Origin: Atopobiaceae bacterium | GTDB taxonomy: Bacteria; Actinomycetota; Coriobacteriia; Coriobacteriales; Atopobiaceae | Reading direction: 5' to 3' | NCBI GenBank assembly: GCA_902834555.1 | Contig: CADFJN010000012.1 | Location: 1,602 to 65,601 of the forward strand | DNA: 64,000 nucleotides | In this document: one piece after another, positions 14,939 through 50,723 of the stretch | Position numbering within the stretch: position 1 is the first letter of the stretch | Layout of the letters: every line of letters begins with the position of its first letter | The notes under the pieces: model-generated | Databases searched by the model: none | Seen by the model: only the letters and a program-made list of their open reading frames with translations | Told to the model about the DNA's origin: nothing | Made by a program: the position numbers and the translations under genes

Positions 14939-14976
14939 CCGAGAGGCCCGCAGAGGCCCGCCCAACAGGCGGCGCC

Positions 14977-15342
14977 TTACCCCAGCAGCCCAGAAACCAC
15001 CAGCGCGACAAGAAGCACTGCCACGGCAACTGCGGCAACCGTCACAACCCGTAGCGTATTGCGCCGCGCCTGCTCGCGACGACGCTTTGCGTAGACCTGC
15101 GCCTCTGCATCGCGCGCGTCGACGGCGCTATAGCTGCCCGTCTCATACGCAGGCGCCGAAAAAACACGCCCTGCGGGAGCCGTTGCCGGCGCGACCCGCG
15201 ATGCGGGGGCCTCGTTTGCCACGCGCCTCCGCCCGCCATCGCGATCGGCCGTATTGCCATCGTGTCGCGATGCCGTTGGAGGCACGTGCACAGCTCCAGA
15301 AGCCGAACGCGCGCCCTTTGTTTTCCTGTCAAACAAAGCCAT
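14977..15342 (-). CDS. Small membrane protein paralogous to the N-terminal anchor of the adjacent deacetylase
   Basis: From the internal ATG: MALFDRKTKG...AQVYAKRRREQARRNTLRVVTVAAVAVAVLLVALVV. Compare ARAYAERHRKEQRSRAVRRGIIIAVACVAALVVGIVV in ORF 16492..16944. It ends just after the TM. Confidence 0.45.
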   Translation of the reverse strand: MALFDRKTKGARSASGAVHVPPTASRHDGNTADRDGGRRRVANEAPASRVAPATAPAGRVFSAPAYETGSYSAVDARDAEAQVYAKRRREQARRNTLRVVTVAAVAVAVLLVALVVSGLLG

Positions 15343-15516
15343 CAGAGACCCCCGCCCCCTCGGGGCAGCTGGCCCCAAACGATGCGACGCGCCGAGAAGG
15401 TCGCGCCGCCTGCATTCTGATGATACCGAGCCGCAGCGGCCGAACAAGCCGTCGCCGCGCAAGTTTCGGCACACTGACATGTAGCTTGAAGGCCCCCGGC
15501 ACGCGGGAGCGGTGCG

Positions 15517-30413: not shown

Positions 30414-30428
30414 GCACCGTGCAAACCC

Positions 30429-33600: not shown

Positions 33601-33894
33601 ATGGCACAGAGCGTCCTCGTCAAGGACACCACGCGAGAGGAGCGCGAGGAGATCGTGCGCCGCGGGCTGAGTTTCTGCGGCGATGGCTCGTGCGAGCAGT
33701 GCAGCGGCTGCTCGATGGGCGTGGGCTCGATCGACGCCATGTACCAGCCCTACATCGACGGCAAGCTTGAGCTGGCAGAGGTCAACATGCTGCACGCCGC
33801 AACCACGTTCACGCTGGGCGGCGGGAGAAGCGCAAACGCCGCGTCCGCAGACACGCCCGCATCCGCGCAAAGCGTCGAGACGAGCAAAGAATAG
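33601..33894 (+). CDS. Hypothetical small Cys-rich protein (FCGDGSCEQCSGCSMG)
   Basis: AAAGGGG RBS, 97 aa, good GC3 bias. It ends 10 nt before trmB, so co-transcription is likely. Confidence 0.5.
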   Translation: MAQSVLVKDTTREEREEIVRRGLSFCGDGSCEQCSGCSMGVGSIDAMYQPYIDGKLELAEVNMLHAATTFTLGGGRSANAASADTPASAQSVETSKE

Positions 33895-33904
33895 CCGAGG
33901 CCCC

Positions 33905-34783
33905 ATGCACGCACGCACACCCAAGCACTTTGTACTCGAGGAGCGCCTCGAGCGCTACGCGGACTTCATCGAGCCTGCGCCGCAGGATTACGCCGGCCGC
34001 TGGGCGGAGGCCTGCTACCCCCTGGGGGGCACCACCGCAGCTTGCGGCGCGGCGAGCGCCGGGCGCTTCCGCGAGGTCCGGCTGGACCTGGGCTGCGGCA
34101 AGGGCGCCTTCACCGTGGAGTCCGCCCGTCGCGAGCCGGACGTGCTCTTCCTTGGCATGGACGGCGAGCCGCTCTGCATGGCCTACGCCGGCGGCCTCGC
34201 CGCGAAGAGCGGCCTTGAGAACGTCGTCTTCCTCGCCTGGGACGGCCATCGCGTAACCGAGGCCTTCGCCCCCGGCGAGCTCTCGTGCATCTACCTCAAC
34301 TTCCCCACGCCGTTCCCGCGCAAGCGCCAGGCGCGACGCCGCCTCACCGACGCCACCTGCCTCATGGAGTATCGCCGCATCCTCGCGCCTGACGGCACGC
34401 TGCGGCTCAAGACGGACAGCCGCCCCCTCTACCTCTTCACGCTCGAGGAGCTTGCCGCCGCAGGCTATCAGGTGCTCTGGACAAGCGAGGACGCGCGCGC
34501 AGACTTCCCCGACGACCCCACAAGCGGCTACGAGGAACGCCTTGCCGCCAATGGCGCCAAGGTCTTCGCGCTGGAGGCAACGCCGGGTCCAGAGCCCGCG
34601 CACTTCTCGCCCACGCCTCAGCGCGGCCTGGTGGAGTACCTCCCCCAGGACCTCGAGAAGATCGACTACGTGCCCCTGGGCATGGAAGCCACAGTGTGGA
34701 ACATGCGCAACCGCGAGGCAAAGCTCTGGGCAAAGGGCCACAAGGACAGCGGGTCCGCCAGCTGTAACGAGAAGACCTGCTAG
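33905..34783 (+). CDS. trmB: tRNA (guanine-N7)-methyltransferase
   Basis: Internal ATG 33905. VRLDLGCGKGAF, LFLGMDGE, IYLNFPTPFPRKRQARRRL, GYEERLAANGAKV. Confidence 0.85.
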   Translation: MHARTPKHFVLEERLERYADFIEPAPQDYAGRWAEACYPLGGTTAACGAASAGRFREVRLDLGCGKGAFTVESARREPDVLFLGMDGEPLCMAYAGGLAAKSGLENVVFLAWDGHRVTEAFAPGELSCIYLNFPTPFPRKRQARRRLTDATCLMEYRRILAPDGTLRLKTDSRPLYLFTLEELAAAGYQVLWTSEDARADFPDDPTSGYEERLAANGAKVFALEATPGPEPAHFSPTPQRGLVEYLPQDLEKIDYVPLGMEATVWNMRNREAKLWAKGHKDSGSASCNEKTC

Positions 34784-34796
34784 AGCTGCCTTCCGG

Positions 34797-35729
34797 CTAT
34801 GCCGTGGCTTCGGCCCAGTGTGCGGCTACGCAGGACTGCGGCGCGGGCACAAAGCCCTCAAAGATCACCGGCGCGCCCTCCGCCTCGGAGGCCAGCATGT
34901 CTCGCTCGCTGCGAATGGTCCACGTGACCAGCTTGCCGCCGAGAGCCCCGCACACCAGGCGCACCGCGGGCTGCTCGCGGTCGTCGAAGCGGTACGCAAT
35001 GAAGTCCGGCTTGGTGGCCACGTTGCCGAGAAGCGCGGTAGCCCCCACGCGCAGCGGCAGCGGCAGCGCCTTTGCGCTTGCACCGGCGTCCTCCGCGAGA
35101 AAGTCCATCGAGAGCTGCCCGCGGATGACCTCGGGGCGGTTGCGACGCAGCCACACCAGCACGGCGGGGTCGAAGCTCTCGATGCAGTAGCGCACGTCGA
35201 AGGTGTCCAGGCACTCCATGACGCGGCTGGTGAGGAGGTCAGCATTCTCGCAGTAGGTCTTGACCTCAATGATGAGCGGTGCAGGCATGGGGCCTTCGCC
35301 GTCCCACTCAAAGATGCGCAGGGCCTCGCCAAGCGTGGGAATACCCTGGTCGGTCCCATTGAGGCGGTACTCCTCGAGCTGCGGGCGCGTAAGCTCCTCG
35401 ACGATGCCCTCCTTGCCCGTCACGCGCTTGAGGTCGGAGTCATGGATGACAACCAGGCGATCGTCCGCGGTGAGGTGCACGTCAAGCTCCACGCCAAAGC
35501 CGTACTCGCGGGCGCGCCTAAAGGCGGCGAGCGAGTTCTCGGGGGCGCCAAGGGAGTCGTCGTGGAGGCCGCGGTGTGCATAGCGGTAGTGCACAAACTC
35601 GTTCCAGCGCTCGTCGACCGTCTTGTTGCCCGTGCGAGGCGCCATGCCATATACGGCTGCAGCCCCAAGGCCTGCGGCGATGCCGGCAGCGAAGAGCGCC
35701 GGGTGCTTGCGAATCATGCAGTTTGCCAT
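34797..35729 (-). CDS. Glycerophosphodiester phosphodiesterase (GDPD family), N-terminal TM anchor
   Basis: GGAGG RBS precedes ATG 35729. YAHRGLHDDSLGAPENSLAAFRRAREYGFGVELDVHLTADDRLVVIHD. Confidence 0.85.
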   Translation of the reverse strand: MANCMIRKHPALFAAGIAAGLGAAAVYGMAPRTGNKTVDERWNEFVHYRYAHRGLHDDSLGAPENSLAAFRRAREYGFGVELDVHLTADDRLVVIHDSDLKRVTGKEGIVEELTRPQLEEYRLNGTDQGIPTLGEALRIFEWDGEGPMPAPLIIEVKTYCENADLLTSRVMECLDTFDVRYCIESFDPAVLVWLRRNRPEVIRGQLSMDFLAEDAGASAKALPLPLRVGATALLGNVATKPDFIAYRFDDREQPAVRLVCGALGGKLVTWTIRSERDMLASEAEGAPVIFEGFVPAPQSCVAAHWAEATA

Positions 35730-35784
35730 CGACAATCCTCCATCCAGGCGTCGACAACACCAGGCACGCCAAACCGGCGGCGCG

Positions 35785-37116
35785 CTAGTCGACGTCGAAC
35801 GACTCGAGCCCTCTCTTCTCGACCAATTTCGAGTCTCCGTGGTGCACGAACAGCATTGTAACGAAGCTTGCCGCAACAAACACCGTGGCGTAGATGAAGA
35901 GTGACCGGTAGCTCACGTTGTGCATGAGCCAACCCGCAGCGATAGGCGTGACAGTCTGCGCGGCCATCGAGAAGGTGTAGTAGAGCCCCGTGAACTTGCC
36001 TGTGTCGGAGCCCTTGCACATCTCGACCACCATGGGCAGCGAGTTCACGTTGATGCCAGCCCAGCCCATGCCCAGGACGATCATCACCACGTAGAGCGCG
36101 GGCGAGAAGCCCATGCCGGCAAAGGTCCAAGCGGCGCAAAACGCAAAGCCGCCGCCGAGAAGCACGATGCCGCCCTGGATGGTGCGCTTGCGCCCCACAC
36201 GGCTGGCGATGGCCCCCACGGGAATGTACGAGACGATGGCACCAACGTTGGCCACAATGAGGCAGCGGCTGGCCTCGCCAAGCGCCATGCCCCACTCCGC
36301 CTGCGCGTACGTGGTAAACCAGGTCTCCATGGCGTTGTAGCCGATGAACCACAGGGCAATGGACGCAAGAAGGAAGCCCAGCGAGCGCCTGACCGGCGCA
36401 GGAAGCACCTCCTTGCCAGTGGCGGCGTCCTTCTCGACGAGGTTCTCCTCGGGGTGCTTAGCCTCGTAGGCCGCGACCTCGGCCTCGAGCTTGGGCTCCT
36501 TCACCGTGAGAAACACAACGGCCACCGAGACCACCATGATGGCAGCCACTATCACAAACAGCGGCAGGTAGTCCACGTGGTCGAGGCCGGCAATGCGCCC
36601 CTTGTTGTAAAGCACAGCGGCAATGCCCAGGTAGATGATGCCGCCCACGGCACCCATGAGGTTGATGATCGCGTTTGCGGGCGAGCGCAGCGGCTTGGGC
36701 GTGCAGTCTGGCATAAGCGCCACGGCAGGGCTGCGGTAGGTGCCCATTGCAACAAGCACAAAGAGCAGAACGCCAATGAACGCGGCGAGAAGGGCACCCG
36801 AGCCGTCCGCATAGTACGCGTTGTCGATGATGGGCAGGAAGATCATGCCCACCACGGCAAGCGCCGTTCCCACGAGGATGAAGGGCATGCGACGGCCCAG
36901 GCGGCTGTGGCAGCGGTCCGAGAGCGAGCCAAAGAACGGCAGGAGGAAGAGGGCAAGGACGTTGTCGGCAGCCATGATCATGCCCGAGAAGGTCTCGTCT
37001 AGGTGGAACGTGTTCGTGAGCATGAGCGGAATCACGCTGTTGTACATCTGCCAGAACGCACAGATGGAGAAGAACGCAAAGCCGATAAGGACGGTCCTGC
37101 GCACATTGAGTTTCAC
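35785..37116 (-). CDS. MFS transporter (sugar/GPH-like, SLC45-type signature region)
   Basis: 12 TM. GSLSDRCHSRLGRRMPF loop motif. It lies immediately upstream of the GDPD gene on the same strand. Confidence 0.8.
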   Translation of the reverse strand: MKLNVRRTVLIGFAFFSICAFWQMYNSVIPLMLTNTFHLDETFSGMIMAADNVLALFLLPFFGSLSDRCHSRLGRRMPFILVGTALAVVGMIFLPIIDNAYYADGSGALLAAFIGVLLFVLVAMGTYRSPAVALMPDCTPKPLRSPANAIINLMGAVGGIIYLGIAAVLYNKGRIAGLDHVDYLPLFVIVAAIMVVSVAVVFLTVKEPKLEAEVAAYEAKHPEENLVEKDAATGKEVLPAPVRRSLGFLLASIALWFIGYNAMETWFTTYAQAEWGMALGEASRCLIVANVGAIVSYIPVGAIASRVGRKRTIQGGIVLLGGGFAFCAAWTFAGMGFSPALYVVMIVLGMGWAGINVNSLPMVVEMCKGSDTGKFTGLYYTFSMAAQTVTPIAAGWLMHNVSYRSLFIYATVFVAASFVTMLFVHHGDSKLVEKRGLESFDVD

Positions 37117-37232
37117 GGGTTCCTCCTAACGCCGGGGTTGCCGCACATCTTTGATGCTAGCTGGCGAGAGGGGCGGCGGGGACGTCGGCCGCCGGCGGTC
37201 TGGCAGGCGGTGCGGAGCGAGGCAGCGGCGCA

Positions 37233-37325
37233 CTTCTCGGCCGGCGGCGCGGTTCTCGCCCGTCGGCGCCCTTCTCGTCCGGCGGCTCCCCTCTCGCCCG
37301 GCGGCGCCCTTCTCGGCCGTCGCAG
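37233..37325. repeat. About 19-bp tandem repeat x about 5 ([CT]TCTCG[GCT]CC[GC][GT]CGGCG[CG]..)
   Basis: cttctcggccggcggcgcgg ttctcgcccgtcggcgccc ttctcgtccggcggctccc ctctcgcccggcggcgccc ttctcggccgtcgc, in the divergent MFS/DUF3825 spacer. Confidence 0.8.
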
Positions 37326-37564
37326 GAAGGGCATTATTGTCGCCATTTGCGACATAACGTGCGCTCCGGCGACAAAATGTCGCCGGAAGCGGCCAAATGG
37401 TGCACAGTGCATCAAATTGCGCGCTCCGGCGACAAGCAACCACCCTCGTTGGCGCTGGCTCCATCCGCGCCGAATCCGCCACGCGCCGACACCCGCGGGT
37501 GATACTGTAGAAGCTTGCAAACTCAGCCCCGTCTCCAGGGACTCTTGAAGGAAGGCCACAAACG

Positions 37565-39685
37565 ATGCCCAGAATCACACCAGGAAACAGGCTTTACCTG
37601 TACAAGCTTCTCTCGTCCACCCTTGGCACCAACCGCCAGGCACTGCTCTCGCGCGTTGAGGAGGTGCTGCTAGAGGACGGCATCGAGCCGCAGGACCTTG
37701 GGAAAGACGACGTCCAATCTCTTATGGAGGCGCTCTCCGAGTTCGTTCGGCTCACCGTCTTCAAGAAGGGGCGCGTCTACGCGACGGTCGTTCCCAACGA
37801 GGAGTACGACGGCTACCTCGAGCGAGCAGGGCAGTCTGGCTCTGGCAGCACGGGCGAGAAGGGCGGAAAGAGCAAGCCATGGAAGCGTCGCAAGGGCTCA
37901 CATGACCCCAAGCCGACAAAGCCACGCCACGTCGAGAAGGCCGAGGCCAAGCCGGAGCCCGTACCGGAACCGGAAGCTGCGGCCGAGCCAGAGCCGGCAT
38001 CCGCGCCGGAGCCGGAGCCTGAAAACGTAACCGTGCCGGAGCCCGAACCGGCGCCAGCACCTGCGCCGGCACCGCAGCCCTCCCTAGCCGACGAGACCCC
38101 CAAAGAGCCAAACGAGCCGCAGGTAGAAGCCACTAGAGCCGAGACCCGCGAGCAACCGGAGCCCGAGACGCCCAACGACTCTGGCATCAACCTCACCATT
38201 ACATATGACCCCTACGAGGACATGGAGGCGGACCTCGCGGCAGCTGCCCAGGCACAGCCCGAGTCTCCGGCACCCGCCACGTCGCAAGCTGCAGCACCGG
38301 CCCCCGCACCGGCCCCCATACCGGTAGCCGCCCCTGCACCCGCCCCAGCCACGCAGCCCCTCCCCCACCAGAACCTCCCCGAGCTCTTCTCGGCAGAGGT
38401 CCACTGCAAGGACGAGCTTCTCCGCGTGCTCTACCAGAAGCTCCCCATCGACGCCGACGTCACCCGCACGCTCGACGAGGACTGGCGCGTGGCCCGCTCG
38501 ACCGGGACCCTCTCGGGCACAAGGAGCCGCGTCACGTTCCCGCTCCGCTACCTCCACGAGGATGGCTCCGGCCCGGTGGAGGTCACAATCCGCCGCACGT
38601 CACGCCCCTTGTCCGGCAAGCAGTGGAGCCTCGCGTTGGTAGATGGTGACGACGGTACCGGCATGGTCCACGAGCAGGTTGGCCTAGAGGGCCTTCCTGC
38701 GGCAGACGAGGGCGCGTGGAGCGACCTCTCTGGTGCGTCGCTGCAGGGCGTGGGCACTTCCACCGTAAGCCCACTTCGCGAGTTCGCACAGTTCGCGGTC
38801 ATCGGCTCCTGGGAGCGCACGCTTGGGACGCTTGCCACCATGGCAGCGCCGGAGCACTGGAACTTCCCCGGCGAGGGCGTGGGCGGTCCCTCTCGCTATG
38901 GCATCCTGCGCGAGTACCTCACTGTGACCTTCCATCGTGCCGTTGAGCAGGGACGCATTGTCACGGCAACGGACAGCTCACTCGCTGCTTTTAACACGGG
39001 GCTGCTCACCCCCTTTGGCGAGGACGTCTACGCAGTCTTCTCGCCCAACGCCGGCGACATACCCTGGAAGCTCGACGGCTTTGCCACCGCGGGCTCGGGG
39101 GAGTTGGGCGCCCGCCTTGCGGCAACGCTTCCCGAGCTGCCGCAGCCGGCCAGCTACCTCGAGCGCGTCGAGGACGTTGTCTGCCAGCCGGGACACATGC
39201 TCATCCTTGACACCGAAGCGCTTCTGGGCGAGAAGGTCGGCCGCCTGCCGCGCGCCTTTCTCGCCGATCAGCTGGCCGGAAGCCCCGAGGCATCGCGCCT
39301 GCTGCGAGACGCCATGGACGACGGCAACGGCCGGCTGGGGCGCACCGCCTGTCGGGAGCTGGCGCGCGCCATCAAGGCAGACCCCAGCCTCTACCGCCGC
39401 ATGGCCCGCGCTCTTCAGGATGCCACGACCCTCTCGCTGCGCCTTGCACAGGCAAGCTACCGCATGGCAGCGCCGGCGTTTGATCCCGCCACTGGTACCA
39501 TGCGGCTCCTACTGCCGCTCTGCCTGGTAGACGATGGCGTGGCCGACTGCGCCATGTCGCTTGAGCTCATGCCGTCCGGTGCGTACCGTGGAGCGGCGAT
39601 CCTCTCGCTGCCGCGCGCTTATGCCTGCGCGCGCGTGGTGAGCCGAGACCAGCCCGCATGGCTCTCGCCGGAAATCGTCCTGTAG
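37565..39685 (+). CDS. Large hypothetical protein: N-terminal OST-HTH/LOTUS-like module, Pro/Glu/Ala-rich linker, C-terminal DUF3825-like domain
   Basis: 706 aa. Linker EPEPAPAPAPAPQP...PAPAPAPIPVAAPAPAP. The C-terminal half has AAFNTGLLTPFGEDVYAVFSPN and LLLPLCLVDD, which I associate with DUF3825. Confidence 0.7.
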   Translation: MPRITPGNRLYLYKLLSSTLGTNRQALLSRVEEVLLEDGIEPQDLGKDDVQSLMEALSEFVRLTVFKKGRVYATVVPNEEYDGYLERAGQSGSGSTGEKGGKSKPWKRRKGSHDPKPTKPRHVEKAEAKPEPVPEPEAAAEPEPASAPEPEPENVTVPEPEPAPAPAPAPQPSLADETPKEPNEPQVEATRAETREQPEPETPNDSGINLTITYDPYEDMEADLAAAAQAQPESPAPATSQAAAPAPAPAPIPVAAPAPAPATQPLPHQNLPELFSAEVHCKDELLRVLYQKLPIDADVTRTLDEDWRVARSTGTLSGTRSRVTFPLRYLHEDGSGPVEVTIRRTSRPLSGKQWSLALVDGDDGTGMVHEQVGLEGLPAADEGAWSDLSGASLQGVGTSTVSPLREFAQFAVIGSWERTLGTLATMAAPEHWNFPGEGVGGPSRYGILREYLTVTFHRAVEQGRIVTATDSSLAAFNTGLLTPFGEDVYAVFSPNAGDIPWKLDGFATAGSGELGARLAATLPELPQPASYLERVEDVVCQPGHMLILDTEALLGEKVGRLPRAFLADQLAGSPEASRLLRDAMDDGNGRLGRTACRELARAIKADPSLYRRMARALQDATTLSLRLAQASYRMAAPAFDPATGTMRLLLPLCLVDDGVADCAMSLELMPSGAYRGAAILSLPRAYACARVVSRDQPAWLSPEIVL

Positions 39686-40987: not shown

Positions 40988-41025
40988 GGGAGCGAGGCCA
41001 TGGCCTCGCTCCCCTATTTCTCTTT
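40988..41025 (+). terminator. Rho-independent terminator of icd
   Basis: GGGAGCGAGGCCATGGCCTCGCTCCC followed by CTATTTCTCTTT. Confidence 0.7.
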
Positions 41026-41161: not shown

Positions 41162-41992
41162 CTATCGCAGCTCGAGGTCCACGAGGGCTTCGGCAACGTC
41201 ATCCACCAGTACATCGGCGCACTCACGCACCGCCTCGGCCGCACGGTTAAAGGTGTAGGCGACATCCGCCTCGTCAAGAAGCGGCAGATCGTTGAAGGAG
41301 TCGCCAATGCCGCCAACCATGCCTAGTCCCAAACGCTCGCGTGCAATGGCAAGCCCGGCACCCTTGGAACATCCCGCAGGCACTACGTCCACAGAGTCGA
41401 GGTTCTGAAAAGCAGAAACCCTGCCCCCAAGCAACTCCCCCGCTCCGGCCACAAAACGAGCAGCGCGTTCCTGGGTACCAAACCCCAGAGAGACAACCTG
41501 CACTCCCGTGCCGTCACCGCCACGCGCCATCGTCAAAGCGTCATCAACCGAGCTCACAACCTTAAGCCGTTTGAGAAACGCCTTCGGAAGCCCGGGGATG
41601 TTTTCCCCGCCCAGCACCAGATAACCAGACCCCATCGCGATAAACGGCGGACGCGAGGTCTGTCCATACGTCGCATCCAGAAGCGCACGCACATCGTCAT
41701 CGGGAACCTCGCGCGAGAACAACGCGTTCCCCGCGCCGTCGCTTACGCAAGCTCCGCTGCTCGTAATCGCAAAATCGAAGCTCAGGTCGCCGCCCGCATC
41801 CGCGAGCACAGCGCCAAGCGGCCTGCCAGTGCAAACGCCAAAGAGACCGCCCCGCGCCCTAAACTCCTCGATTGCCCTAAGGTCACGCGGAAGGAACCGG
41901 TGCAGCGGGTGCATGCGGCCGCCAATGCCAAAGAAGAGCGTCCCGTCAAAGTCGCTCGCCATCGCTCTTCCCTCAAAGCTAGCACCCGCCAT
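41162..41992 (-). CDS. HAD-superfamily (Cof-type) phosphatase
   Basis: SDFDGTLFF (DxD motif I) and GIGDSFNDLPLL (motif IV). Confidence 0.75.
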   Translation of the reverse strand: MAGASFEGRAMASDFDGTLFFGIGGRMHPLHRFLPRDLRAIEEFRARGGLFGVCTGRPLGAVLADAGGDLSFDFAITSSGACVSDGAGNALFSREVPDDDVRALLDATYGQTSRPPFIAMGSGYLVLGGENIPGLPKAFLKRLKVVSSVDDALTMARGGDGTGVQVVSLGFGTQERAARFVAGAGELLGGRVSAFQNLDSVDVVPAGCSKGAGLAIARERLGLGMVGGIGDSFNDLPLLDEADVAYTFNRAAEAVRECADVLVDDVAEALVDLELR

Positions 41993-42134
41993 CAGCAGCT
42001 CCCCTCAATAGCGCAACCACGCCATCATACCGCGACCAGCTCAAACACTATTGAGGAGCAAAGGCGCCGCCGCTCATCTCAAGCGACGGCGTCCCTTGTT
42101 CCAAATCACGCAAACCTGGCTTTGGAGGTCTTCG

Positions 42135-44240
42135 CTACTCCTCTGCCTTGCGTTGCTTCCAGGCCTCCTCGTTGCGCCAATCGTTCCCGTCGAGATGCCA
42201 GTTGTTGAAGTCGGAGACGTCCCCAACTATCTGATACTCAAGCAGGTCATAGTCACGCTTGCCGTCGTGCGTAAGCATACAGTAGGTTCGCAGGCGATCC
42301 GCGGGGTCATGTCGGTCCTCAAGCGCCACGTTGAACTCTCCGTAGTGGTCGAGAACGTCCTGCGAGGCACCCATACCCTTGAGCATGGTAGCCTGGAGGT
42401 CCTTGTGGCTGGCCGGCTCCTGGGAGATGGCACAAGGCGCCGCATCAGCCATCGCGTCCTGCGCGGGCTTCACAAAGATGATAGGCGACGTGGGCTCAGT
42501 GAGGGGCTCGTCCGTGAGGTACCACTCGCCATGGTCCGCGGTCACGATGATCGTGGACTGGTCGTAAACCCCAAGCTCCTTGAGCTGCCGCAGGTACTCG
42601 GAGAGGATGTGGAACGTACCGAGCGTCTGGTCCTCCAGGCTCGTGCCCTCCTCGTTGAGGTTGCCCTGCGCGTCCATTGTGTAGGGGGTATGTGTCCCCA
42701 CAAGGTGAATGAAGCGGAACGAGGCGTCCTCGCTGTTGATGGAGAGACCTCGCTCCTTCAGCTTCTGGTAGTATGCCGGGTCATTCATGACATAGGGAGT
42801 GCTTGAGGGGTCATTCTCGGCGTCACTTGAGAACATGGCGTTGTTTATTTGGTCCGTGTAATACCAGAAGAACGGCTTAAGCACCCATGGCATGTCGCGA
42901 TAGAGCGAGCACTGGTAGAGGATCTTGAGGGTACTTTGCTTGTCGAGCGCCCTCGAAGCATCAAGGGGATGCACGTTAATGGTGCGTGTTTTCGCATAAT
43001 CAAGGCTAAATGAGTCAGTATAAATGCCCATCGTGTAGCCCTGGGCAGACACATCATCTAGGAATGTGCTACCCGAGTAGAAACGGCCAAAAAAGTCGTC
43101 CCAAGCCTCCCCTGCCCTTGGATAAGAGCCCGTGAGCAGGAACGGAATCCCATATCGAGTTGGAATCATCGAGCCGGTGCTGTTCTGGTACCACGTGAAG
43201 CCCGTGAACTCGTCGAGCATCTCGGGGTAATTGTCGTAGACGGCCTTGGTTTTGAGTGAGTCAACGGTATCAACGACAAGCACAATAACATTCTTGTTCT
43301 TCGACACGTCAAACATGCCCTGCTCGGTGGTGTAAATCCTCTGGGTCTGGATGCTCGAGCCGTCCGGGGGCGAGACCCACAGGCTCACCACGCCCACCAG
43401 CTGGACAACCACGAGAACAACGCTCGCCACTGCCGCAACCGCCCTACCGGCCTTCTCACGCATAACAGCAAGGGTCACCAGAGTGGCGGCAATAACGCCC
43501 CAGATGAGCAAGTTCCCAACCATTTCCCTGGTGTACTTGCTCCAGTCGATGAGGTTGCCGTCGGCAACCGTAAGGTTGCCATTGAGAAAGAGCGTCTGCA
43601 CGTAGGACCCAATGCCAACGGCAAGGGCCAGAGCGAGAAGCACGTCAAACGCCCGCCCGCGGAACGCAGAGAGGATAAGGCCACAGACAACGCCAACGAG
43701 AAGCCCCGCCACGAGGATGAGCTGCCACATGCTGTCCAGGCCAAAGACGAGCGATGCGGAGTTAGCAGCAACGAGCTCGTAGGGAGCCACGACGAGAATC
43801 GTAAACGCATCGAACACGCAGGCGAGAAGCGCAAGCACGATGCGGCGGCGCCACGGCAGGCCCGCCGGGCGGCCCGTGGCGGCCCCGCGCGCGTTGCCGC
43901 CCGCGGCTGCAAGCGCCTCTCGCGCCGCCGCGTCGGCCGCGGCCTTGCCGGAGGGGTCGACGCGGGAGACCGCGGGCTCGGCCACGCGGCCCGCCCCCTC
44001 GTCTACGTGCAGGATCCTCATGAGGGCCTTGCGCGTGCGCCTGAAGGCCACGCCCAGCACCGCCGAGAGCGCAACCGCCACGGCGGCCAGCGCCTGGATC
44101 GTGTAGGTCATGACCGAGGGGTCCACGTACGCGAGGGCCGGTGTGGCGGGCACAAGCACCCACACGGCAGTAAGGGCAAACGCGTAGAGCGCGTCGTGGA
44201 GCGCGAGCGCCGGCGCGAGCGCATTTCTCGTGCTTCTCAA
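42135..44240 (-). CDS. LtaS/sulfatase-family (alkaline-phosphatase superfamily) polytopic membrane protein, paralog 1
   Basis: TTG start 9 nt after AGGAGG. N-terminal multi-TM region. Extracytoplasmic domain with VIVLVVDTVDS, WYQNSTGSMIPTRYG and IIVTADHGEW. Confidence 0.8.
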   Translation of the reverse strand: MRSTRNALAPALALHDALYAFALTAVWVLVPATPALAYVDPSVMTYTIQALAAVAVALSAVLGVAFRRTRKALMRILHVDEGAGRVAEPAVSRVDPSGKAAADAAAREALAAAGGNARGAATGRPAGLPWRRRIVLALLACVFDAFTILVVAPYELVAANSASLVFGLDSMWQLILVAGLLVGVVCGLILSAFRGRAFDVLLALALAVGIGSYVQTLFLNGNLTVADGNLIDWSKYTREMVGNLLIWGVIAATLVTLAVMREKAGRAVAAVASVVLVVVQLVGVVSLWVSPPDGSSIQTQRIYTTEQGMFDVSKNKNVIVLVVDTVDSLKTKAVYDNYPEMLDEFTGFTWYQNSTGSMIPTRYGIPFLLTGSYPRAGEAWDDFFGRFYSGSTFLDDVSAQGYTMGIYTDSFSLDYAKTRTINVHPLDASRALDKQSTLKILYQCSLYRDMPWVLKPFFWYYTDQINNAMFSSDAENDPSSTPYVMNDPAYYQKLKERGLSINSEDASFRFIHLVGTHTPYTMDAQGNLNEEGTSLEDQTLGTFHILSEYLRQLKELGVYDQSTIIVTADHGEWYLTDEPLTEPTSPIIFVKPAQDAMADAAPCAISQEPASHKDLQATMLKGMGASQDVLDHYGEFNVALEDRHDPADRLRTYCMLTHDGKRDYDLLEYQIVGDVSDFNNWHLDGNDWRNEEAWKQRKAEE

Positions 44241-44343
44241 GTTCTCATTCCTCCTACGTTCCCACCGGCGTCAGCGCCAGATGCGCTTGGCGCAAGCCGC
44301 CGAGAAGTAGACGGTATCGGCTGGCATCTCTCGCGCATCCTGT

Positions 44344-46455
44344 CTAGCGCTCGTTCGTCTCCCAGGTAACGCCTGTGAGGCTCCAGGAGTTCCAATCCTC
44401 CACAGGGCCAATCACGCTGAACTGGTACATGTGCGGAGTGTAGTTCCCGTCCCACGTCGGAGCGTCAAAGGCGCGAACGCGATTCTCGTCAAAAGTGGCC
44501 GCGACGTTATACGCCGGAGTCCCATACTTTGCTACCAGTGCCTGGTCGCCGTTGGAGGCCTGGTCGATGACGGTCGCAAGCACATCGGGTGCCCAGACGG
44601 GAGTCGTGGCATCTATGGAAAGGCTCTCATGCGCAGCACCCGCAGGCTTCACGAACAGGATGGGGGACGTCGGCCTCTCGATGGGGGTGTCTGACATGAA
44701 GTCAATCCTGCCGTGGTCTGCCGTCACGATGACCGTAGTGTTGTCATACACCCCAAGCTCCTTGAGATCGTCGAGATAGGTCGAGACGATCTTGAAAGAA
44801 CCAAGGAGCTGCTGATCGTACGTGGTCTCGCCGTCAACCCGCTCTCCCTGCGCGTCCATCGTGTATGGGAAGTGCGCACCCAGCAGGTGGATGAACCGGA
44901 ACGAGCCAGTCTCTCCGTCATTGTTAATGGAGAGACCTCGTATCTTCAGCTGAGCATAGAACGAGGGGTCATCAAAGTTGTATGGAACGTCGCCAAGGTC
45001 ATCCGCTTCCTCCTTGGGGGTGGACATTCTCTGATTAAGCTCGTCGGTGTAGTACCAGAGGAAGGGTTTGAACATCCACGGGAGATCGCGGTACAAGGCG
45101 GCCTTGTACATGATCCGTACCGCACCCGTCTCGTCGAGGCCACTCATGCCACCGTCATCAAGGGGGTGGACGTTCTTAGCAAGCCCGGCGAAGGCATTCG
45201 GGTCGCCATGGGTTGTCGAGCCCGAATCCGAATAGACCCCAATGTCATATCCCAAGCCGCTGAGGTCCTTGAGGTAGGTGCTCTTGCCAACAGAAGACTT
45301 CACGTACTCTTGGAAGTCCTCGCCCTCCTGCGGGAGCTGACCGGTGAGAAGGTATGAGCAGCCATACCTCGTGGGAGCAAGAGAACCCACAGAGTTCTGG
45401 TACCAGGTGAACCCGTCGAGGGCATCGAACATCGAGGGATTGTCCGAGTACACCTCTTCCAGGTACTGTGTGTCGGTCATGTCAAGAACAATGACTACCA
45501 CGTTCTTCTTGTCGGAGACGTCGAACATACCCTGCTCTGTGTAAACGTTATCCTGGTCGTTGGGAACGGGGGCAGTGGCGGGGTTGAGCCAGATCGACGC
45601 AATGGCAACCGCCTGAATGATGATGAGAACTCCCGCAAGCGAAGCGTTCGCAAGGCGTGAGACAGAGGGCTTCCGAACTGCCGCCACAATTGCAACGGCA
45701 ATCACGGCGACCCAGATTGCAGCGCTCACGACCATCGGCTGTTTGTAGAGGCTCCAATCAACGAGGTCACCGTTGGTGATAGGAAGCGACCCGTTAAGAA
45801 ACATCGCCTGCAGATACCCGCAAAGCGTCACCGCCGCAACAAGCGAAAGAACGACATCAAAGGCGCGCCCGCGAAGCACCGAGACGACAAGCGCCAAGAC
45901 AACAGCAACGAGAAGCCCCGCGCGGACGATGGCCGGCCACACAGAGTTGAGGCCATACGTCAGGTCTGCGGTATTCGCCGCCAGCAATTCAAACGGAGCA
46001 ACAACAAAATAGGTAATTGTCAGCGAGACAGAGACCACGAGGGCGAGAAGCAGCCGCTTTGGCCACTTGACGGCCTCCCTGGGGTCACGCCTCCCCTCGC
46101 CGCGCGCGTTGCCGCCCGCGGCTGCAAGCGCATCTCGCGCCGCCGCGTCGGCCGCGGCCTTGCCGGAGGGGTCGATGCGGGAGACCGCGGGCTCGGCCAC
46201 GCGGCCCGCACCCTCGTCTACGTGCAGGATCCTCATGAGGGCCTTGCGCGTGCGCCTGAAGGCCACGCCCAGCACCGCCGAGAGCGCAACCGCCACGGCG
46301 GCCAGCGCCTGGATCGTGTAGGTCATGACCGAGGGGTCCACGTACGCGAGGGCCGGTGTGGCGGGCACAAGCACCCACACGGCAGTAAGGGCAAACGCGT
46401 AGAGCGCGTCGTGGAGCGCGAGCGCCGGCGCGAGCGCATTTCTCGTGCTTCTCAA
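44344..46455 (-). CDS. LtaS/sulfatase-family membrane protein, paralog 2
   Basis: Same architecture: VVVIVLDMTDT, WYQNSVGSLAPTRYG, VIVTADHGR. The first ~110 aa are nearly identical to paralog 1. Confidence 0.8.
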   Translation of the reverse strand: MRSTRNALAPALALHDALYAFALTAVWVLVPATPALAYVDPSVMTYTIQALAAVAVALSAVLGVAFRRTRKALMRILHVDEGAGRVAEPAVSRIDPSGKAAADAAARDALAAAGGNARGEGRRDPREAVKWPKRLLLALVVSVSLTITYFVVAPFELLAANTADLTYGLNSVWPAIVRAGLLVAVVLALVVSVLRGRAFDVVLSLVAAVTLCGYLQAMFLNGSLPITNGDLVDWSLYKQPMVVSAAIWVAVIAVAIVAAVRKPSVSRLANASLAGVLIIIQAVAIASIWLNPATAPVPNDQDNVYTEQGMFDVSDKKNVVVIVLDMTDTQYLEEVYSDNPSMFDALDGFTWYQNSVGSLAPTRYGCSYLLTGQLPQEGEDFQEYVKSSVGKSTYLKDLSGLGYDIGVYSDSGSTTHGDPNAFAGLAKNVHPLDDGGMSGLDETGAVRIMYKAALYRDLPWMFKPFLWYYTDELNQRMSTPKEEADDLGDVPYNFDDPSFYAQLKIRGLSINNDGETGSFRFIHLLGAHFPYTMDAQGERVDGETTYDQQLLGSFKIVSTYLDDLKELGVYDNTTVIVTADHGRIDFMSDTPIERPTSPILFVKPAGAAHESLSIDATTPVWAPDVLATVIDQASNGDQALVAKYGTPAYNVAATFDENRVRAFDAPTWDGNYTPHMYQFSVIGPVEDWNSWSLTGVTWETNER

Positions 46456-46485
46456 GCTCTCATTCCTCCTACGTTCCCACCGGCG

Positions 46486-48618
46486 TCAGCGCCAGATGCG
46501 CTTGGCGTCATCGTCGGTGATGATCCAGTCATTGCCATCAAGACGCCAGTTTGCGAAGTCCTGGGAGTCGCCCGAGATCTCGTACTCGCGCCAGCTGGTA
46601 TCCAGTTTTCCGTTGCTCGTCGTCATGAGGTAGTAGCGTAAGCGGTCCGCAGGGTCATTGCGGTCCTCGATGGCCTGGTTGAACTCGCCGTAGTGGTCAA
46701 GGACCTCCTGCGAGGCACCCATTCCCTTGAGCATCGTTGCTTGAAGGTCATAGTGGCTCACGGGCTGCTGCGAAATCTGGCACGGAACCAAGTCTGCCTC
46801 GGCAGGCTGTGCCGGCTTCACAAAGATGATGGGCGTCGAGACGCCTGCAATCTCATCGGGCGTGATGTACCAGGTGCCGTGGTCAGCGGTGATGACCACC
46901 GTGGTGCTGTCGTAGAGCCCCAGGCGCTTGAGCTCGTCGAGGTAGGTGCGCACAATCTTGAACGCCCCCACCATCTGGGACTCCCAGTCGCTGGACTCTG
47001 CGACCTTGTTGCCATCGGCATCCATGATGTAGGGCCAGTGTGTACCGTCAAGGTGGATGAAGCGGAATGAGGCGTCCTCGTTGTTGATAGAAAGCCCGCT
47101 CTCCTTGAGCTTCGCAAAGTAAGCCGGATCGTCCATGGCGTAAGGGGTGAGGTCCGGGGACGACCCACTCGTGCCGCTTACCATTCCCTGGTTGATCTGG
47201 TCCGTATAGAACCAGAAGAATGGCTTGGCAATCCACGGCATGTCGCGATACAGCGCGCACTGGTACAGAATGCGAAGCGTCCCCTGCCAATCAAGGGCGC
47301 TCTTCGCAACGTCCGAGGTGCTCTCGAAGTTCTCGGCGTGCTGCCCCAGGTATTCGCTCCAGCCGTCTATCCAGTCCGCAGAGTCAGAGTAGATGCCCGT
47401 GGTATAGCTCTGAGCTGCAACATCATCCAAGAAGTAGCTGTCCGAGTACATGGACGAGAGGAAATCCGCCGCGTCCTCCCCTGCTTGTGGCCGCATGCCC
47501 GTAAGCAGGGAGGGGATGCCATAGCGCGTAGGAATCATAGACCCCGTACTGTTCTGGTACCAGGTAAAGCCATCCAAACCGTCAAACATGTTTGGGTTGT
47601 CGGCATATGCTTTCTTGGCATCTGCGGTGTCGGTCATGTCAAGCACAAAGCACACCACGTTCTTCTTGCCCGAGACGTCAAAGAGGCCCTTCTCGGTGAT
47701 GGTGATGGACTCTGGCTCGGATTCCGCCTTGGTCACAATTCCAACAACGCCGGCAACCTGCACAACGATGAGAGCGGCACTCAGTGCTGCGGCAGCGGCC
47801 CTCTCCACCCGCGGGCGCTTGACTGCAAGAACAACAAGGGCGGTGACGACCGTCGCCCATACAAGCAGGCTGATACCAGTGACGGACGCAAACTGGGTCC
47901 AGTCCACAAGATTGCCATCGGCGACGGGCAGGCTCGAGTTCATGGAGAGCACCTGCACGTAGGCACTCACGCCAAGAGCAACGATGACGGCGAGAATCAC
48001 CTCAAAGGCGCGACCGCGGAACGCCGAGAGCACAAAGCCGCTGGCAACGGCCAGGAGAAGACCAGCCACGACCACGATCTGCCACACCTGACGGACCCCA
48101 AAGAGCAGGCTGTCGGAGCTGCCGGCAACAAGCTCGAGCGGAGCCACCACAAACACCGTGAGGACGAGAAAGACGCAGGCGAGAAGCGCAAGCACGATCC
48201 GGCGGCGCCAGGGGATGCCCGCCCGGCGGCCCGTGGCGGCCCCGCGCGCGTTGCCGCCCGCGGCTGCAAGCGCATCTCGCGCCGCCGCGTCGGCCGCGGC
48301 CTTGCCGGAGGGGTCGATGCGGGAGACCGCGGGCTCGGCCACGCGGCCCGCACCCTCGTCTACGTGCAGGATCCTCATGAGGGCCTTGCGCGTGCGCCTG
48401 AAGGCCACGCCCAGCACCGCCGAGAGCGCAACCGCCACGGCGGCCAGCGCCTGGATCGTGTAGGTCATGACCGAGGGGTCCACGTACGCGAGGGCCGGCG
48501 TGGCCATCGCTGTGAGCAGACAGGCACTTATCGCAGCAAGGCCAAGGACGTCCCACGCAAGGACCAGCAGGCGCCCAACAATGCGGTGCGCACCCTTTTG
48601 GGAGCGGCTAGTCATCAT
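46486..48618 (-). CDS. LtaS/sulfatase-family membrane protein, paralog 3
   Basis: Start taken at MMTSRSQKG (48618) by alignment with paralogs 1 and 2; the longer track ORF to 48894 overlaps the upstream gene. VVCFVLDMTDT, WYQNSTGSMIPTRYG, VVITADHGTW. Confidence 0.8.
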   Translation of the reverse strand: MMTSRSQKGAHRIVGRLLVLAWDVLGLAAISACLLTAMATPALAYVDPSVMTYTIQALAAVAVALSAVLGVAFRRTRKALMRILHVDEGAGRVAEPAVSRIDPSGKAAADAAARDALAAAGGNARGAATGRRAGIPWRRRIVLALLACVFLVLTVFVVAPLELVAGSSDSLLFGVRQVWQIVVVAGLLLAVASGFVLSAFRGRAFEVILAVIVALGVSAYVQVLSMNSSLPVADGNLVDWTQFASVTGISLLVWATVVTALVVLAVKRPRVERAAAAALSAALIVVQVAGVVGIVTKAESEPESITITEKGLFDVSGKKNVVCFVLDMTDTADAKKAYADNPNMFDGLDGFTWYQNSTGSMIPTRYGIPSLLTGMRPQAGEDAADFLSSMYSDSYFLDDVAAQSYTTGIYSDSADWIDGWSEYLGQHAENFESTSDVAKSALDWQGTLRILYQCALYRDMPWIAKPFFWFYTDQINQGMVSGTSGSSPDLTPYAMDDPAYFAKLKESGLSINNEDASFRFIHLDGTHWPYIMDADGNKVAESSDWESQMVGAFKIVRTYLDELKRLGLYDSTTVVITADHGTWYITPDEIAGVSTPIIFVKPAQPAEADLVPCQISQQPVSHYDLQATMLKGMGASQEVLDHYGEFNQAIEDRNDPADRLRYYLMTTSNGKLDTSWREYEISGDSQDFANWRLDGNDWIITDDDAKRIWR

Positions 48619-50554
48619 TGTCGCCCTGAACCCCCGTCCCAAACGCACCAGCCGCGGTAATGTCCTTGCCCTCCTGCTTTGCGAGAATCTCGCCGAGGAT
48701 GTACTCGCCCGCGGCCTCGCCGCCGTGGCCAAGGTTGTAGATGAAGCCGTCACGAATCTGGCGAATCCTGTCGTTCCAGGACGAGGAGTTCGTGACCATG
48801 TCGTCGATGACGTCCTCGAGCTCGGAGAGGTCCTTGGGGTCAAGCGAGCGGCCAATCTGGTTGCGCAGCGTGATGTCGGTGGGCGTAATGCCAACCTGCT
48901 CGTAGTCCGGGTTGATGACCTTCATGGGGGTGTCGATGAAGAGCGACGGCTTGAGCGTGGTGAACGAGAACTCCTCGGCAATCGTCGACCAGTCGGTAAT
49001 CAGCACATCGGACTCGAGGATGGAGCCGTGGCCGGAGAAGTCCGCCTCGATCGTGAGCTCGTCGGAGCTCACCTTGGAGTAGCGTTCGACAAGCGCCTCC
49101 CAGCGAGGCCGGTAGCGCTTCACGTACTCGGGGTGGGGACGAAGAATCACGTGGTAGCCGTGGCCAAGCAGGCGGCTGAGCATGTCGTCGATGCAGGTGT
49201 CGAGGATGTTGTCCGTGTTCCACGAGGGCGCGATGAGGATGATGGGGCGCTCGTGCTTCTCGTGAGGCATCTTCTCGTAGTCTGCCATCTCGCGGTCGAG
49301 AAGGTCGTAGCCAATCTCGGGGACCTTCTTCTTCTGCGTGTGATAGGCCTTCTCCATGGCGCGGATCTCTGCCTTCTGGTGAGGGCCAACGCACATTATG
49401 GTGTCGTAGTTGTCGTACTCCTGCTTTGTGCCCGTCATGTGCATCGAAGTCATGTGGTGGCACATGTAGATGTACTCGATGTCCTTGCGGATGTAGGAGC
49501 GCTTGATGTAGTACACGTCGAGCGCGCCAAGCGAGGTCACCACCACGTCGGCGTCCATCTTCATCATGAGGGTGATGAGGCGCTTCTGGTCGAGGAAGTA
49601 CGGGATGAGGCGCGGTTCGCGCTTGGCGATGTCAAAGACCTGGTCGTTGGGGTCGCTCGTAAGGTAGTGGATGCGCACGTCGGAGTTGTTGAGCAGCCAC
49701 TCTATGGCGCCCTGGAAGTACTTGTAGAAGCCCGAGCTCTCGGAGTAGAACACCAGGTGCTTGCCGTCCACCTTGAAGAAGCGCTTGTAGTCCGCCTTGG
49801 CGCGGCGGGCCAGCGGGTCTGGCTGGTACCACTTGCGATCGCCCTTGGTGGCCTCCTCGATGGCGTTGAACTCGTCGCGTGCGGCATTGAGGTCCTCGTA
49901 GTCGATGTAGTCGCGCGGCTTCACAATCACGTTGCACAGCGCCTGCACCGCAATGGAGAGAAGGTTGGAGCACACCCAGTAGAAGGCCATGCCGCACACC
50001 ACGTAGAAGCCCAGGAAGAGCGAAAGGGCGATGGAGAGGCCATTGGTCATGTTCTTCTCGGCACGGGACTGCTCGCGCTGCAGAGGGTTGATGCGGTTGG
50101 AGGCCCAGCCCATGATCACAGCCGAGAGGCCCGCGAACAGTGGCATGATGAGCGACGCGCCGCCGTTCTCGATGGGCACGAGGCCCAGAAACTCGGTGCC
50201 GGAGGCGCCGGAGTCCGTGATGGAGTGGATGACGTCGACCAGGCCAAAGAGGATGACCACCTGGATGGCCAGCGGGATGAGCGAGAGCAGGGCATGGTAG
50301 TGCTTCTCGTGATAGAGCTCGTTCTGCTTCTCCTCGATGGTCTCGCGGTCGCCATAGTAGCGGCACTTGATGCGGAATAGCTCGGGCATGAGCTGCACCA
50401 TCACGATGCTGTTCTTCTGGCACCATACCGAGAGCGGCATGAGGATGACCTTGGAGAACAGGGTGAAGAGAAAGATTGCCGCCCACCAGCTACCGGTGAG
50501 GTCGTAGGCCGGCTGCACGATAAGCGAGAAGAAATTCGCTAGCGCCTCGAACAT
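48608..50554 (-). CDS. Fusion protein: YidC/Oxa1-like membrane insertase domain + TagB/TagF-type CDP-glycerol glycerophosphotransferase domain
   Basis: N-terminus: WWAAIFLFTLFSKVILMPLSVWCQKNSIVMVQLMPELFRIKCRYYGD...YWVCSNLLSIAVQ (YidC-like, 5 TM). C-terminus: IILIAPSWN, LRPHPEY, DVLITDWSTIAEEF (Glyphos_transf-like). Confidence 0.75.
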   Translation of the reverse strand: MFEALANFFSLIVQPAYDLTGSWWAAIFLFTLFSKVILMPLSVWCQKNSIVMVQLMPELFRIKCRYYGDRETIEEKQNELYHEKHYHALLSLIPLAIQVVILFGLVDVIHSITDSGASGTEFLGLVPIENGGASLIMPLFAGLSAVIMGWASNRINPLQREQSRAEKNMTNGLSIALSLFLGFYVVCGMAFYWVCSNLLSIAVQALCNVIVKPRDYIDYEDLNAARDEFNAIEEATKGDRKWYQPDPLARRAKADYKRFFKVDGKHLVFYSESSGFYKYFQGAIEWLLNNSDVRIHYLTSDPNDQVFDIAKREPRLIPYFLDQKRLITLMMKMDADVVVTSLGALDVYYIKRSYIRKDIEYIYMCHHMTSMHMTGTKQEYDNYDTIMCVGPHQKAEIRAMEKAYHTQKKKVPEIGYDLLDREMADYEKMPHEKHERPIILIAPSWNTDNILDTCIDDMLSRLLGHGYHVILRPHPEYVKRYRPRWEALVERYSKVSSDELTIEADFSGHGSILESDVLITDWSTIAEEFSFTTLKPSLFIDTPMKVINPDYEQVGITPTDITLRNQIGRSLDPKDLSELEDVIDDMVTNSSSWNDRIRQIRDGFIYNLGHGGEAAGEYILGEILAKQEGKDITAAGAFGTGVQGDNDD

Positions 50555-50723
50555 TATGCAACTCCCAGGGTTTTCAGCTGATATTGGGACCGTGCTACCT
50601 TACCACGCGAGAACGACACAATTGCCTTCTCCTAACATGCTCACGAACCTGCTATGCCGCACGACGCACCGCATGCGCTGCGTTATCCTCATGGCAGGTG
50701 GAGGCGCATCGAGAGGGGCACAC

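Follow-up and report, generated by a model that had tools for sequence, protein, structure and literature searches.

What does a cytoplasmic domain resembling a teichoic acid polymerase, carried on an insertase fold, have to do with a row of membrane enzymes whose catalytic domains face the outside of the cell? This question is raised by a gene cluster in a 64,000-nucleotide (nt) stretch of contig CADFJN010000012.1 from an Atopobiaceae bacterium (here called the window; ~63% guanine plus cytosine [GC]), in which a gene fusing a YidC fold to a TagF/TarL-like domain is followed by genes for LtaS-like proteins of the alkaline-phosphatase (AP) superfamily. TagF enzymes build poly(glycerol phosphate) (poly(GroP)) in the cytoplasm from CDP-glycerol, and LtaS-family enzymes act outside the membrane on phosphatidylglycerol (PG)-type donors. 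A preliminary description of the window proposed that both logics are joined here in a hybrid pathway. The functional link that it implied is borne out by gene linkage and by single-chain fusions, but the label "LtaS-family" proved too specific. Across the relatives compared below, the YidC fold, the TagF/TarL-like domain, and an LtaS-like unit of five transmembrane (TM) helices plus an AP domain are co-inherited and translationally coupled.

The minus-strand run from 41162 to 50554 comprises five genes: the YidC and TagF-like fusion, three tandem membrane AP paralogs of ~700 amino acids (aa), and a HAD-IIB phosphatase (Table 1). The layout first read from the window holds on the sequence. Four minus-strand genes are consecutive, the ATGATG start of paralog 3 lies within caATGATGacTAG and overlaps the final codons and TAG stop (48608-48610) of the fusion gene by 11 nt, AGGAGG-N9-TTG precedes paralogs 2 and 1 alike, and the HAD gene placed about 140 nt further downstream begins after a gap of 142 nt. 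The span originally drawn, 41162-50723, is genic only as far as 50554, and its outer limit is the end of the divergent spacer that separates the fusion gene from a phosphofructokinase gene. A simple scan of this spacer gave no sigma-70-like site, and a crude scan of the three spacers of the cluster gave no intrinsic-terminator-like site. Because the counts from these scans were no better than those from shuffled sequences, they neither support nor refute a single transcript. The isocitrate dehydrogenase and HAD genes converge, and a GC-rich hairpin between them is a candidate for the end of the transcription unit.

To place the cluster in its class, one genome per species was scanned for the fusion, and the 80 closest-matching loci were kept. 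In Coriobacteriia, at least 564 genome stretches at the species level encode the fusion, and the window protein is 98% identical to a Tractidigestivibacter montrealensis KD21 protein and to an uncultured Olsenella protein. The source of the window is a gut actinobacterium of the Tractidigestivibacter/Olsenella clade. The loci that were kept derive from Atopobiaceae, Coriobacteriaceae (Collinsella), and Eggerthellaceae (Gordonibacter and Ellagibacter). When at least 700 nt of downstream sequence was required and the AP-like gene had to start within 600 nt on the same strand, such a gene lay directly downstream of the fusion in 70 of 72 species loci (97%), from all three families. Start/stop overlaps of 8 to 11 nt recur in Lancefieldella, Eggerthellaceae, and further relatives. 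This comparison of neighborhoods, together with the single-chain proteins described below, agrees with the original proposal that the genes belong together.

The number of AP-like genes is more variable. Most genomes carry one copy, some carry two (L007-9, L013-14, L016-17, L023, L025, and L090), and three are found in the window and in loci L010, L012, L018, and L022. The three diversified outer enzymes that first drew attention to the cluster are a recent, strain-variable expansion, and the unit conserved across the class is the fusion plus one AP-like gene.

The association between the two proteins is most direct where they form one chain. A single-sequence search with the TagF-like domain against 1.84 billion cluster representatives returned 1950 clusters at an E value of ≤0.001, and fifteen of the best 150 clusters are 1168 to 1545 aa long. 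All 12 long relatives that were scanned (1185 to 1545 aa) hold YidC, TagF-like, and Sulfatase/AP modules in one polypeptide. Six have the order YidC-TagF-AP (P0241, P0242, P0245, P0251, P0258, and P0266), and six have the order AP-YidC-TagF (P0247, P0250, P0252, P0255, P0261, and P0264). The P0241 cluster has five members of exactly 1386 aa from independent assemblies, including NCBI RVU97704.1 from a Coriobacteriales bacterium, which makes a read-through artifact unlikely. The AP part of P0241 shares 45% identity with paralog 3 across 695 residues, and the N-terminal hairpin block described below lies within the matched region. Both domain orders are topologically coherent, because a cytoplasmic TagF-like end can lead into a hairpin whose N terminus is inside, and an outward-facing AP domain can lead into a YidC TM1 that enters the membrane from outside.

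Gene order can also be reversed. In a locus of 41% GC (L094/L095), an AP homologue of 575 aa (27% identity to paralog 3; E value, 7e-47) that lacks the hairpin lies directly upstream of a 693-aa YidC-TagF gene, and a related fusion is annotated from Clostridiales. Given two independent fusion orders and two gene orders, the most economical reading is a physical and functional partnership. Stand-alone homologues of the TagF-like domain (~380 to 400 aa) also occur in many clusters (P0300-P0382; L097, 8001-9206). Some of these are named "YidC/Oxa1 insertase" by JGI, and since their length leaves no room for a YidC domain, the name looks carried over from the fusions. One stand-alone homologue shares its locus with kinase, NTP_transferase, HAD, and GT2/GT4 genes.

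The fusion protein matches Pfam PF02096 (60KD_IMP) with 95.4 bits (cut-off, 35) over aa 23-208 and PF04464 (Glyphos_transf) with 36.9 bits (cut-off, 22.1) over aa 374-537, the latter through the C-terminal half of the model only. It scores 83.4 bits against TIGR03592, slightly below the cut-off of 84.3. In an AlphaFold2 (AF2) model with a pLDDT of 81.5, five TM helices and a cytoplasmic hairpin precede a GT-B fold. The first part resembles YidC/Oxa1 proteins (YidC2, SpoIIIJ) in its five-TM core, its cytoplasmic hairpin, its positive TM1-groove residue, and its P..Q and YW..SN motifs. It differs from them in having Lys for the groove Arg, no lipoprotein signal, and a 430-aa enzyme domain in place of the ribosome-binding tail. 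Alignment to Bacillus halodurans YidC2 (3WO7) puts Lys35 in the place of the groove Arg, and residues K35, P94, Q98, Y192, W193, and N197 are invariant among 35 homologues. The domain has ~60 invariant positions in all, and these include the cytoplasmic loop of aa 153-174, which is unusually polar and sets the fusion apart from YidC/Oxa1 as well.

The C-terminal part shares with TagF/TarL (PF04464) a GT-B-like two-Rossmann fold, the C-terminal motifs of TarL (8VA1), and a cytoplasmic, membrane-associated location. However, it forms a remote subfamily that has a YidC-fold tether instead of the amphipathic membrane-binding region of TagF and is unlinked to TagO, TagA, TagD, and TagGH. Its top Foldseek matches in the PDB are the TagF structures 3L7K and 3L7L (E value, 5e-11; TM-score, 0.54 to 0.56 on the target). 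A single-sequence search of PDB sequences with the domain gave no teichoic acid enzyme. Only a profile of 63 subfamily members reached Staphylococcus aureus TarL (8VA1; E value, 4.5e-7), and it aligned LIAPSW, RPHP, and TDWS to that protein. The signature motifs of TagF/TarL, AP(T/S)(F/W), HP, and (T/S)D(Y/W)S, are all present in the window protein, within LIAPSWN, ILRPHPEY (containing H474), and ITDWST. H366 and H474 (H137 and H245 in the alignment) are invariant across the 63 diverse sequences and appear to match the two-His pattern known for TagF, with the equivalence of H366 inferred. The domain keeps the nucleotide-binding motifs of its family and two invariant His residues, and its family membership suggests that it could be a polymerase that makes poly(GroP) from CDP-glycerol.

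The AP-like paralogs match only PF00884 (Sulfatase) in Pfam, with 25.1, 22.8, and 18.0 bits (cut-off, 25); paralogs 2 and 1 are 48% and 61% identical to paralog 3. An AF2 model (pLDDT, 82) has an N-terminal two-helix hairpin, a cytoplasmic loop and helix, five TM helices, and an extracytoplasmic AP domain. This model, the model of the fusion, and the topology of YidC are consistent with the division into inside and outside enzymes that had been proposed for the cluster. Residues D327, T364, H522, H527, D579, and H580 do not vary among the three paralogs and 33 family members, and in the same set the nucleophile position reads (I/A)PTRYG, with an invariant Thr and no C/S-x-P-x-R formylglycine motif. 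These features mark the proteins as phosphotransferases with a Thr nucleophile and not sulfatases, and the domain keeps a full metal site. An AxA motif before YVDPS was considered as a signal-peptidase site and dropped; an uncleaved hairpin with its N terminus inside is preferred because the triple fusion P0241 runs from the cytoplasmic TagF-like domain straight into that helix.

How close these proteins are to LtaS depends on the measure. A family profile searched against PDB sequences found S. aureus LtaS first (E value, 6e-8) and Listeria LtaS next, with EptA and MCR-1 absent, and the alignment to LtaS includes the H..P and DH motifs. On the other hand, the best paralog scores 18.7 bits against the NCBIfam LtaS equivalog NF053595 (cut-off, 970), the other two have no match to it, and no paralog could be usefully named from NCBIfam. 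Foldseek shows no preference and ranks PbgA, 3LXQ, MCR-1, EptA, and LtaS alike (E values, 1e-9 to 1e-7). We therefore describe the AP-like proteins as distant relatives of LtaS that fall outside the LtaS family by the NCBI criterion. Like LtaS/LtaP, they have five TM helices with an extracytoplasmic AP domain, a Thr nucleophile, an Asp/His metal site, and multiple paralogs per genome. Unlike LtaS/LtaP, they have an additional conserved N-terminal two-helix hairpin and cytoplasmic loop, they are obligately paired or fused with YidC-TagF, and they are structurally no nearer to LtaS than to PbgA, EptA, or MCR-1.

The additional N-terminal element has an unusual history. The most conserved protein segment of the AP family is encoded by a 258-nt block near the 5' end of each gene, which specifies the outer loop, the second helix of the hairpin, and the cytoplasmic loop. 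Among the three copies in the window, this block is 98.8 to 100% identical at the nucleotide level, compared to 60 to 66% for the 1.5 kb that follows, and in relatives the copies within a genome are 87 to 96% identical in the block versus 58 to 67% elsewhere in the genes. The pattern is mosaic. Paralog 1 resembles paralog 2 upstream of the block, where the two are identical over ~55 nt preceding their starts, and it resembles paralog 3 past the block, where paralog 2 diverges. A short relic of a paralog-3-like 3' end, coding for AKRIWR and a stop, directly precedes the duplicated ribosome-binding site within the stretch that is common to the upstream regions of paralogs 1 and 2, and it marks the edge of a duplicated or converted tract. 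The mosaic identities point to recurrent gene conversion of the block, and purifying selection combined with such conversion fits an element that is bound to suit one invariant partner.

Outside the block, the AP genes change quickly. Identity to T. montrealensis KD21 is 96% for phosphofructokinase, 98% for isocitrate dehydrogenase, and 98% for the fusion, compared to 84%, 88%, and 93% for paralogs 3, 2, and 1 and 80% for the HAD protein. Another genome has a fusion that is 98% identical next to a single AP gene with only 49% identity to paralog 3. Together with the HAD gene, the AP genes form a fast-evolving cassette of variable copy number. The HAD gene follows the last AP copy only in the Olsenella/Tractidigestivibacter clade (present in L009, L010, L012-14, L016-18, and L020-21; missing from L007 and L008) and is a clade-specific add-on. 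An assignment as the PG-phosphate phosphatase PgpP was dropped, since PgpP is a HAD-IIIA protein (PMC11804483) and the window protein is a Cof-type HAD-IIB.

Taken together, these observations lead us to favor, with roughly even confidence, a single complex across the membrane, built from the fusion and the AP-like proteins, whose task would be to make or decorate an envelope polymer that is teichoic-acid-like and linked by phosphodiesters. In a first step, the cytoplasmic TagF-like domain would take an alcohol phosphate from a CDP-activated donor and move it to an acceptor linked to a membrane lipid; the alcohol is most likely glycerol or another polyol. The YidC-fold domain would keep this reaction at the membrane, and its hydrophilic groove could give the lipid-linked head group a way to the outer leaflet; insertases including YidC have been reported to scramble lipids (PMC11047089). 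Outside, the LtaS-like enzyme would load the phospho-alcohol on its Thr and hand it to a final acceptor, such as a glycolipid, a lipoglycan, or a wall polysaccharide. The identical N-terminal hairpin of the paralogs would be the docking element for the invariant fusion protein, and each paralog probably has an acceptor or linkage of its own, so that surfaces would vary from strain to strain. A more specific version, in which the YidC fold has been recruited as a flippase or scramblase for the lipid-linked teichoic acid precursor made by its own TagF-like domain and passes it to the docked LtaS-like transferase, is speculative, and we consider it improbable at present.

Several points weigh against the proposed complex. 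Its existence, substrates, and product are deduced from genes and models. Two loci (L074 and L089) carry the fusion next to unrelated genes and without an adjoining AP gene. No gene for CDP-glycerol or CDP-ribitol synthesis and no lipid-carrier primase was found within the window. The TagF-like domain is remote from characterized enzymes, such that a narrow profile of 16 members misses every PDB sequence, and profile searches did not align H366 residue for residue to His444 of TagF. The YidC groove is, to our knowledge, established for short polypeptide segments and for phospholipid scrambling, not for teichoic acid intermediates, and glycerol-phosphate polymers are not documented for Coriobacteriia in the searchable literature.

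The competing account that survives best keeps YidC in its classical role. Here the YidC domain would be dedicated to the multi-pass AP-like enzymes, as their insertase or assembly chaperone, with the conserved N-terminal hairpin as the client signal; the enzymes would act on PG as classical LtaS proteins do, and the TagF-like domain would carry out a separate cytoplasmic step, such as the priming of an anchor. The hallmarks of YidC are indeed retained. The AP family is most conserved in its two-helix hairpin, and hairpins of this kind, with a short outer loop, are classical substrates of YidC alone. Translational coupling would also bring the client to its insertase. PG is probably available in these organisms, because Coriobacteriia carry the Firmicutes-type phosphatase PgpP (PMC11804483). 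However, low-GC AP homologues that lack the hairpin are still linked or fused to YidC-TagF, and an insertase covalently joined to its own client is hard to rationalize in the single-polypeptide versions. Moreover, the globular domain that follows TM5 directly seems to take the place of the ribosome-binding tail of Gram-positive YidC proteins, and its constant attachment is left unexplained. We regard this account as rather unlikely.

The hybrid pathway can also be taken literally. The TagF-like domain would then polymerize a chain of the wall teichoic acid type on a polyprenyl carrier, an unlinked transporter would export it, and YidC would be a mere anchor, while the AP-like enzymes would separately add or ligate glycerol phosphate, phosphoethanolamine, or phosphocholine from phospholipids in the manner of GacH, OpgB, and BcsG. 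Family resemblances (in Pfam, in Foldseek, and in the LtaS profile match) are in line with this arrangement, and Wzx flippase, glycosyltransferase (GT), and choline-activation genes are often nearby in other lineages. Multiple paralogs are typical of decoration enzymes, and Bacillus subtilis has four LtaS paralogs. Yet the ~60 invariant positions of the YidC domain, including the groove Lys and the polar loop, argue that it is not a mere anchor, exporter and primase are unlinked to the pair in most loci, and obligate linkage and fusion point to direct coupling rather than to two independent steps. The literal pathway is, in our judgment, a doubtful explanation. That the sulfatase-like proteins are hydrolases (true sulfatases or phosphodiesterases) unconnected with the fusion, brought together by chance or shared regulation, finds an echo in the weak Pfam Sulfatase matches, in "arylsulfatase" database names, and in a glycerophosphodiesterase gene nearby in the window, but it is very improbable and already contradicted by the adjacency in three families and the twelve independent triple-fusion clusters with two domain orders, besides the Thr nucleophile in place of a formylglycine motif.

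Comparison with characterized systems indicates where the proposed complex departs from precedent. GacH, OpgB, and BcsG are likewise outward-facing AP-superfamily transferases, and they use phospholipids to modify glycans with glycerol phosphate or phosphoethanolamine; this is a likeness by description, and neither a YidC fold nor a TagF-like domain is coupled to any of them. BcsG acts next to a synthase of the inner membrane, and that pair is a possible functional analogy for the AP-like proteins and the fusion. Actinobacteria make lipoteichoic acid (LTA) without a clear LtaS orthologue, and a route overlapping wall teichoic acid synthesis of the TagB/TagF type has been hypothesized (PMC3196553). 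Such an LtaS-independent route, in Actinobacteria and Streptococcus pneumoniae, resembles the present system in its TagB/TagF-type enzyme and in the lack of a recognizable LtaS orthologue (PMC3196553), but the hypothesis includes carrier-lipid synthesis, a flippase, and a ligase, and it has neither an LtaS-like partner nor a YidC fusion. We found no report in the searchable literature on a fusion of YidC with TagF, or on LtaS-like enzymes as partners of such a fusion, in agreement with the earlier view that the layout is not a described pathway, and a search on teichoic acids in Coriobacteriia, Olsenella, and Eggerthella gave no description of a YidC-TagF/LtaS-like module. The component families are known, and the novelty lies in their architecture and coupling.

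Some loci place the pair among housekeeping genes. Several lineages have it within glycopolymer loci with GlfT2-like, LicD, GT2/GT4, rhamnose, Wzx, MBOAT, LicA/LicC, and choline-binding genes, a setting that speaks for the proposed complex. In several unrelated lineages, the module has as a neighbor either a 298-aa winged-helix and NTP_transferase protein or a nucleotidylyltransferase-kinase of the LicC/LicA type. Both are candidates for making the activated donor of the TagF-like domain (Table 1), and with them it becomes conceivable that CDP-choline or another CDP-alcohol, instead of CDP-glycerol, is that donor. At locus L006, a 711-aa DUF7657/DUF7654 gene (13942-16077) overlaps the stop of the AP-like gene and is followed by EamA, two choline kinase, and EutH genes; its product may be a further accessory component.

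Within the window itself, a Pfam scan of ~50 open reading frames (small ones left out) gave no member of the TagD, TagO, TagA, or TagGH families, as had been noted for primase, TagD, and exporter genes, and tRNA and Rfam scans of the window returned no matches. From Olsenella to Lancefieldella (L001, L007, and L010), the genes at 33683-39685 remain syntenic with the module. They include a GDPD gene, and since GlpQ-type GDPD enzymes trim glycerol-phosphate polymers, a functional link to the module is possible. A stretch of lower GC (0.55 to 0.60) at 29073-31730 encodes a serpin and an ATPase and may have been acquired horizontally. A polysaccharide deacetylase gene and a GT2 gene are other envelope-glycan genes of the window and are unlinked to the operon.

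Table 1. Features of the window and of related loci discussed in the text (positions in nt; unless a locus is named, positions are those of the window)
Feature	Positions	Strand	Remarks
Fusion gene	48608-50554	-	ATG start, 648 aa; YidC/Oxa1 N-terminal, TagF/TarL-like GT-B C-terminal
YidC-fold domain	49931-50488	-	aa 23-208; five TM helices, cytoplasmic hairpin
TagF/TarL-like domain	48635-49771	-	aa ~262-640; predicted cytoplasmic
AP-like paralog 3	46486-48618	-	710 aa, ATGATG start
Conserved 5' block, paralog 3	48238-48495	-	Encodes ALAYVDPSVMTYTIQALAAVAVALSAVLGVAFRRTRK...GGNARG
AP-like paralog 2	44344-46455	-	703 aa, TTG start; 30 nt past paralog 3
Conserved 5' block, paralog 2	46096-46353	-	Nucleotide comparison of three copies
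Relic of paralog-3-like 3' end	44271-44291	-	GCCAAGCGCATCTGGCGCTGA, codes AKRIWR*; in spacer between paralogs 2 and 1
AP-like paralog 1	42135-44240	-	701 aa, TTG start; 103 nt past paralog 2
Conserved 5' block, paralog 1	43881-44138	-	Nucleotide comparison of three copies
HAD gene	41162-41992	-	276 aa, Cof-type HAD-IIB; last gene of the cluster, 142 nt past paralog 1
Divergent spacer, fusion gene/phosphofructokinase gene	50555-50723		Presumed operon promoter region
GC-rich hairpin	40988-41013		11-bp stem; putative end of transcription unit
Methyltransf_4 gene	33683-34783		
GDPD glycerophosphodiesterase	34797-35879		~100-aa N-terminal extension
Major facilitator superfamily (MFS) transporter	35785-37116		
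DUF3825 protein	37565-39685		
Bacterial serpin gene	29073-30413		Pfam Serpin, 254 bits
AAA_14/DUF4143 ATPase gene	30429-31730		
Polysaccharide deacetylase	15517-16452	-	N-terminal bacterial Ig-like domain
GT2 glycosyltransferase	17085-18332	+	415 aa
Donor-maker candidate, L004	8979-9875		
Donor-maker candidate, L096	7358-8254		
Donor-maker candidate, L091	6752-8545		
Donor-maker candidate, L097	5572-7152		

Coriobacteriia such as Eggerthella, Collinsella, Lancefieldella, and Olsenella are abundant in the microbiota of humans and animals and are immunologically active, and hardly any of their envelope polymers have been characterized. The link between the fusion and the AP-like proteins has been hidden by database names, which are "YidC insertase," "membrane protein," or "hypothetical" for fusion homologues and "arylsulfatase" or "hypothetical" for some AP-like homologues. 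A coupled YidC-TagF/LtaS-like module found across the class offers a genetic handle on these polymers and bears on how Actinobacteria without LtaS make LTA-like molecules. It also lends itself to testing the recent idea that lipid head groups cross membranes by way of insertase folds, and the strain-variable cassette of AP genes is a candidate for determining recognition by phages or by the immune system. If the YidC fold does serve as the conduit for a lipid-linked precursor, then the module would be a self-contained synthase-exporter of two proteins, or sometimes one, that needs no TagGH or Wzx transporter, and it could be the missing LtaS-independent route to LTA-like polymers in Actinobacteria.

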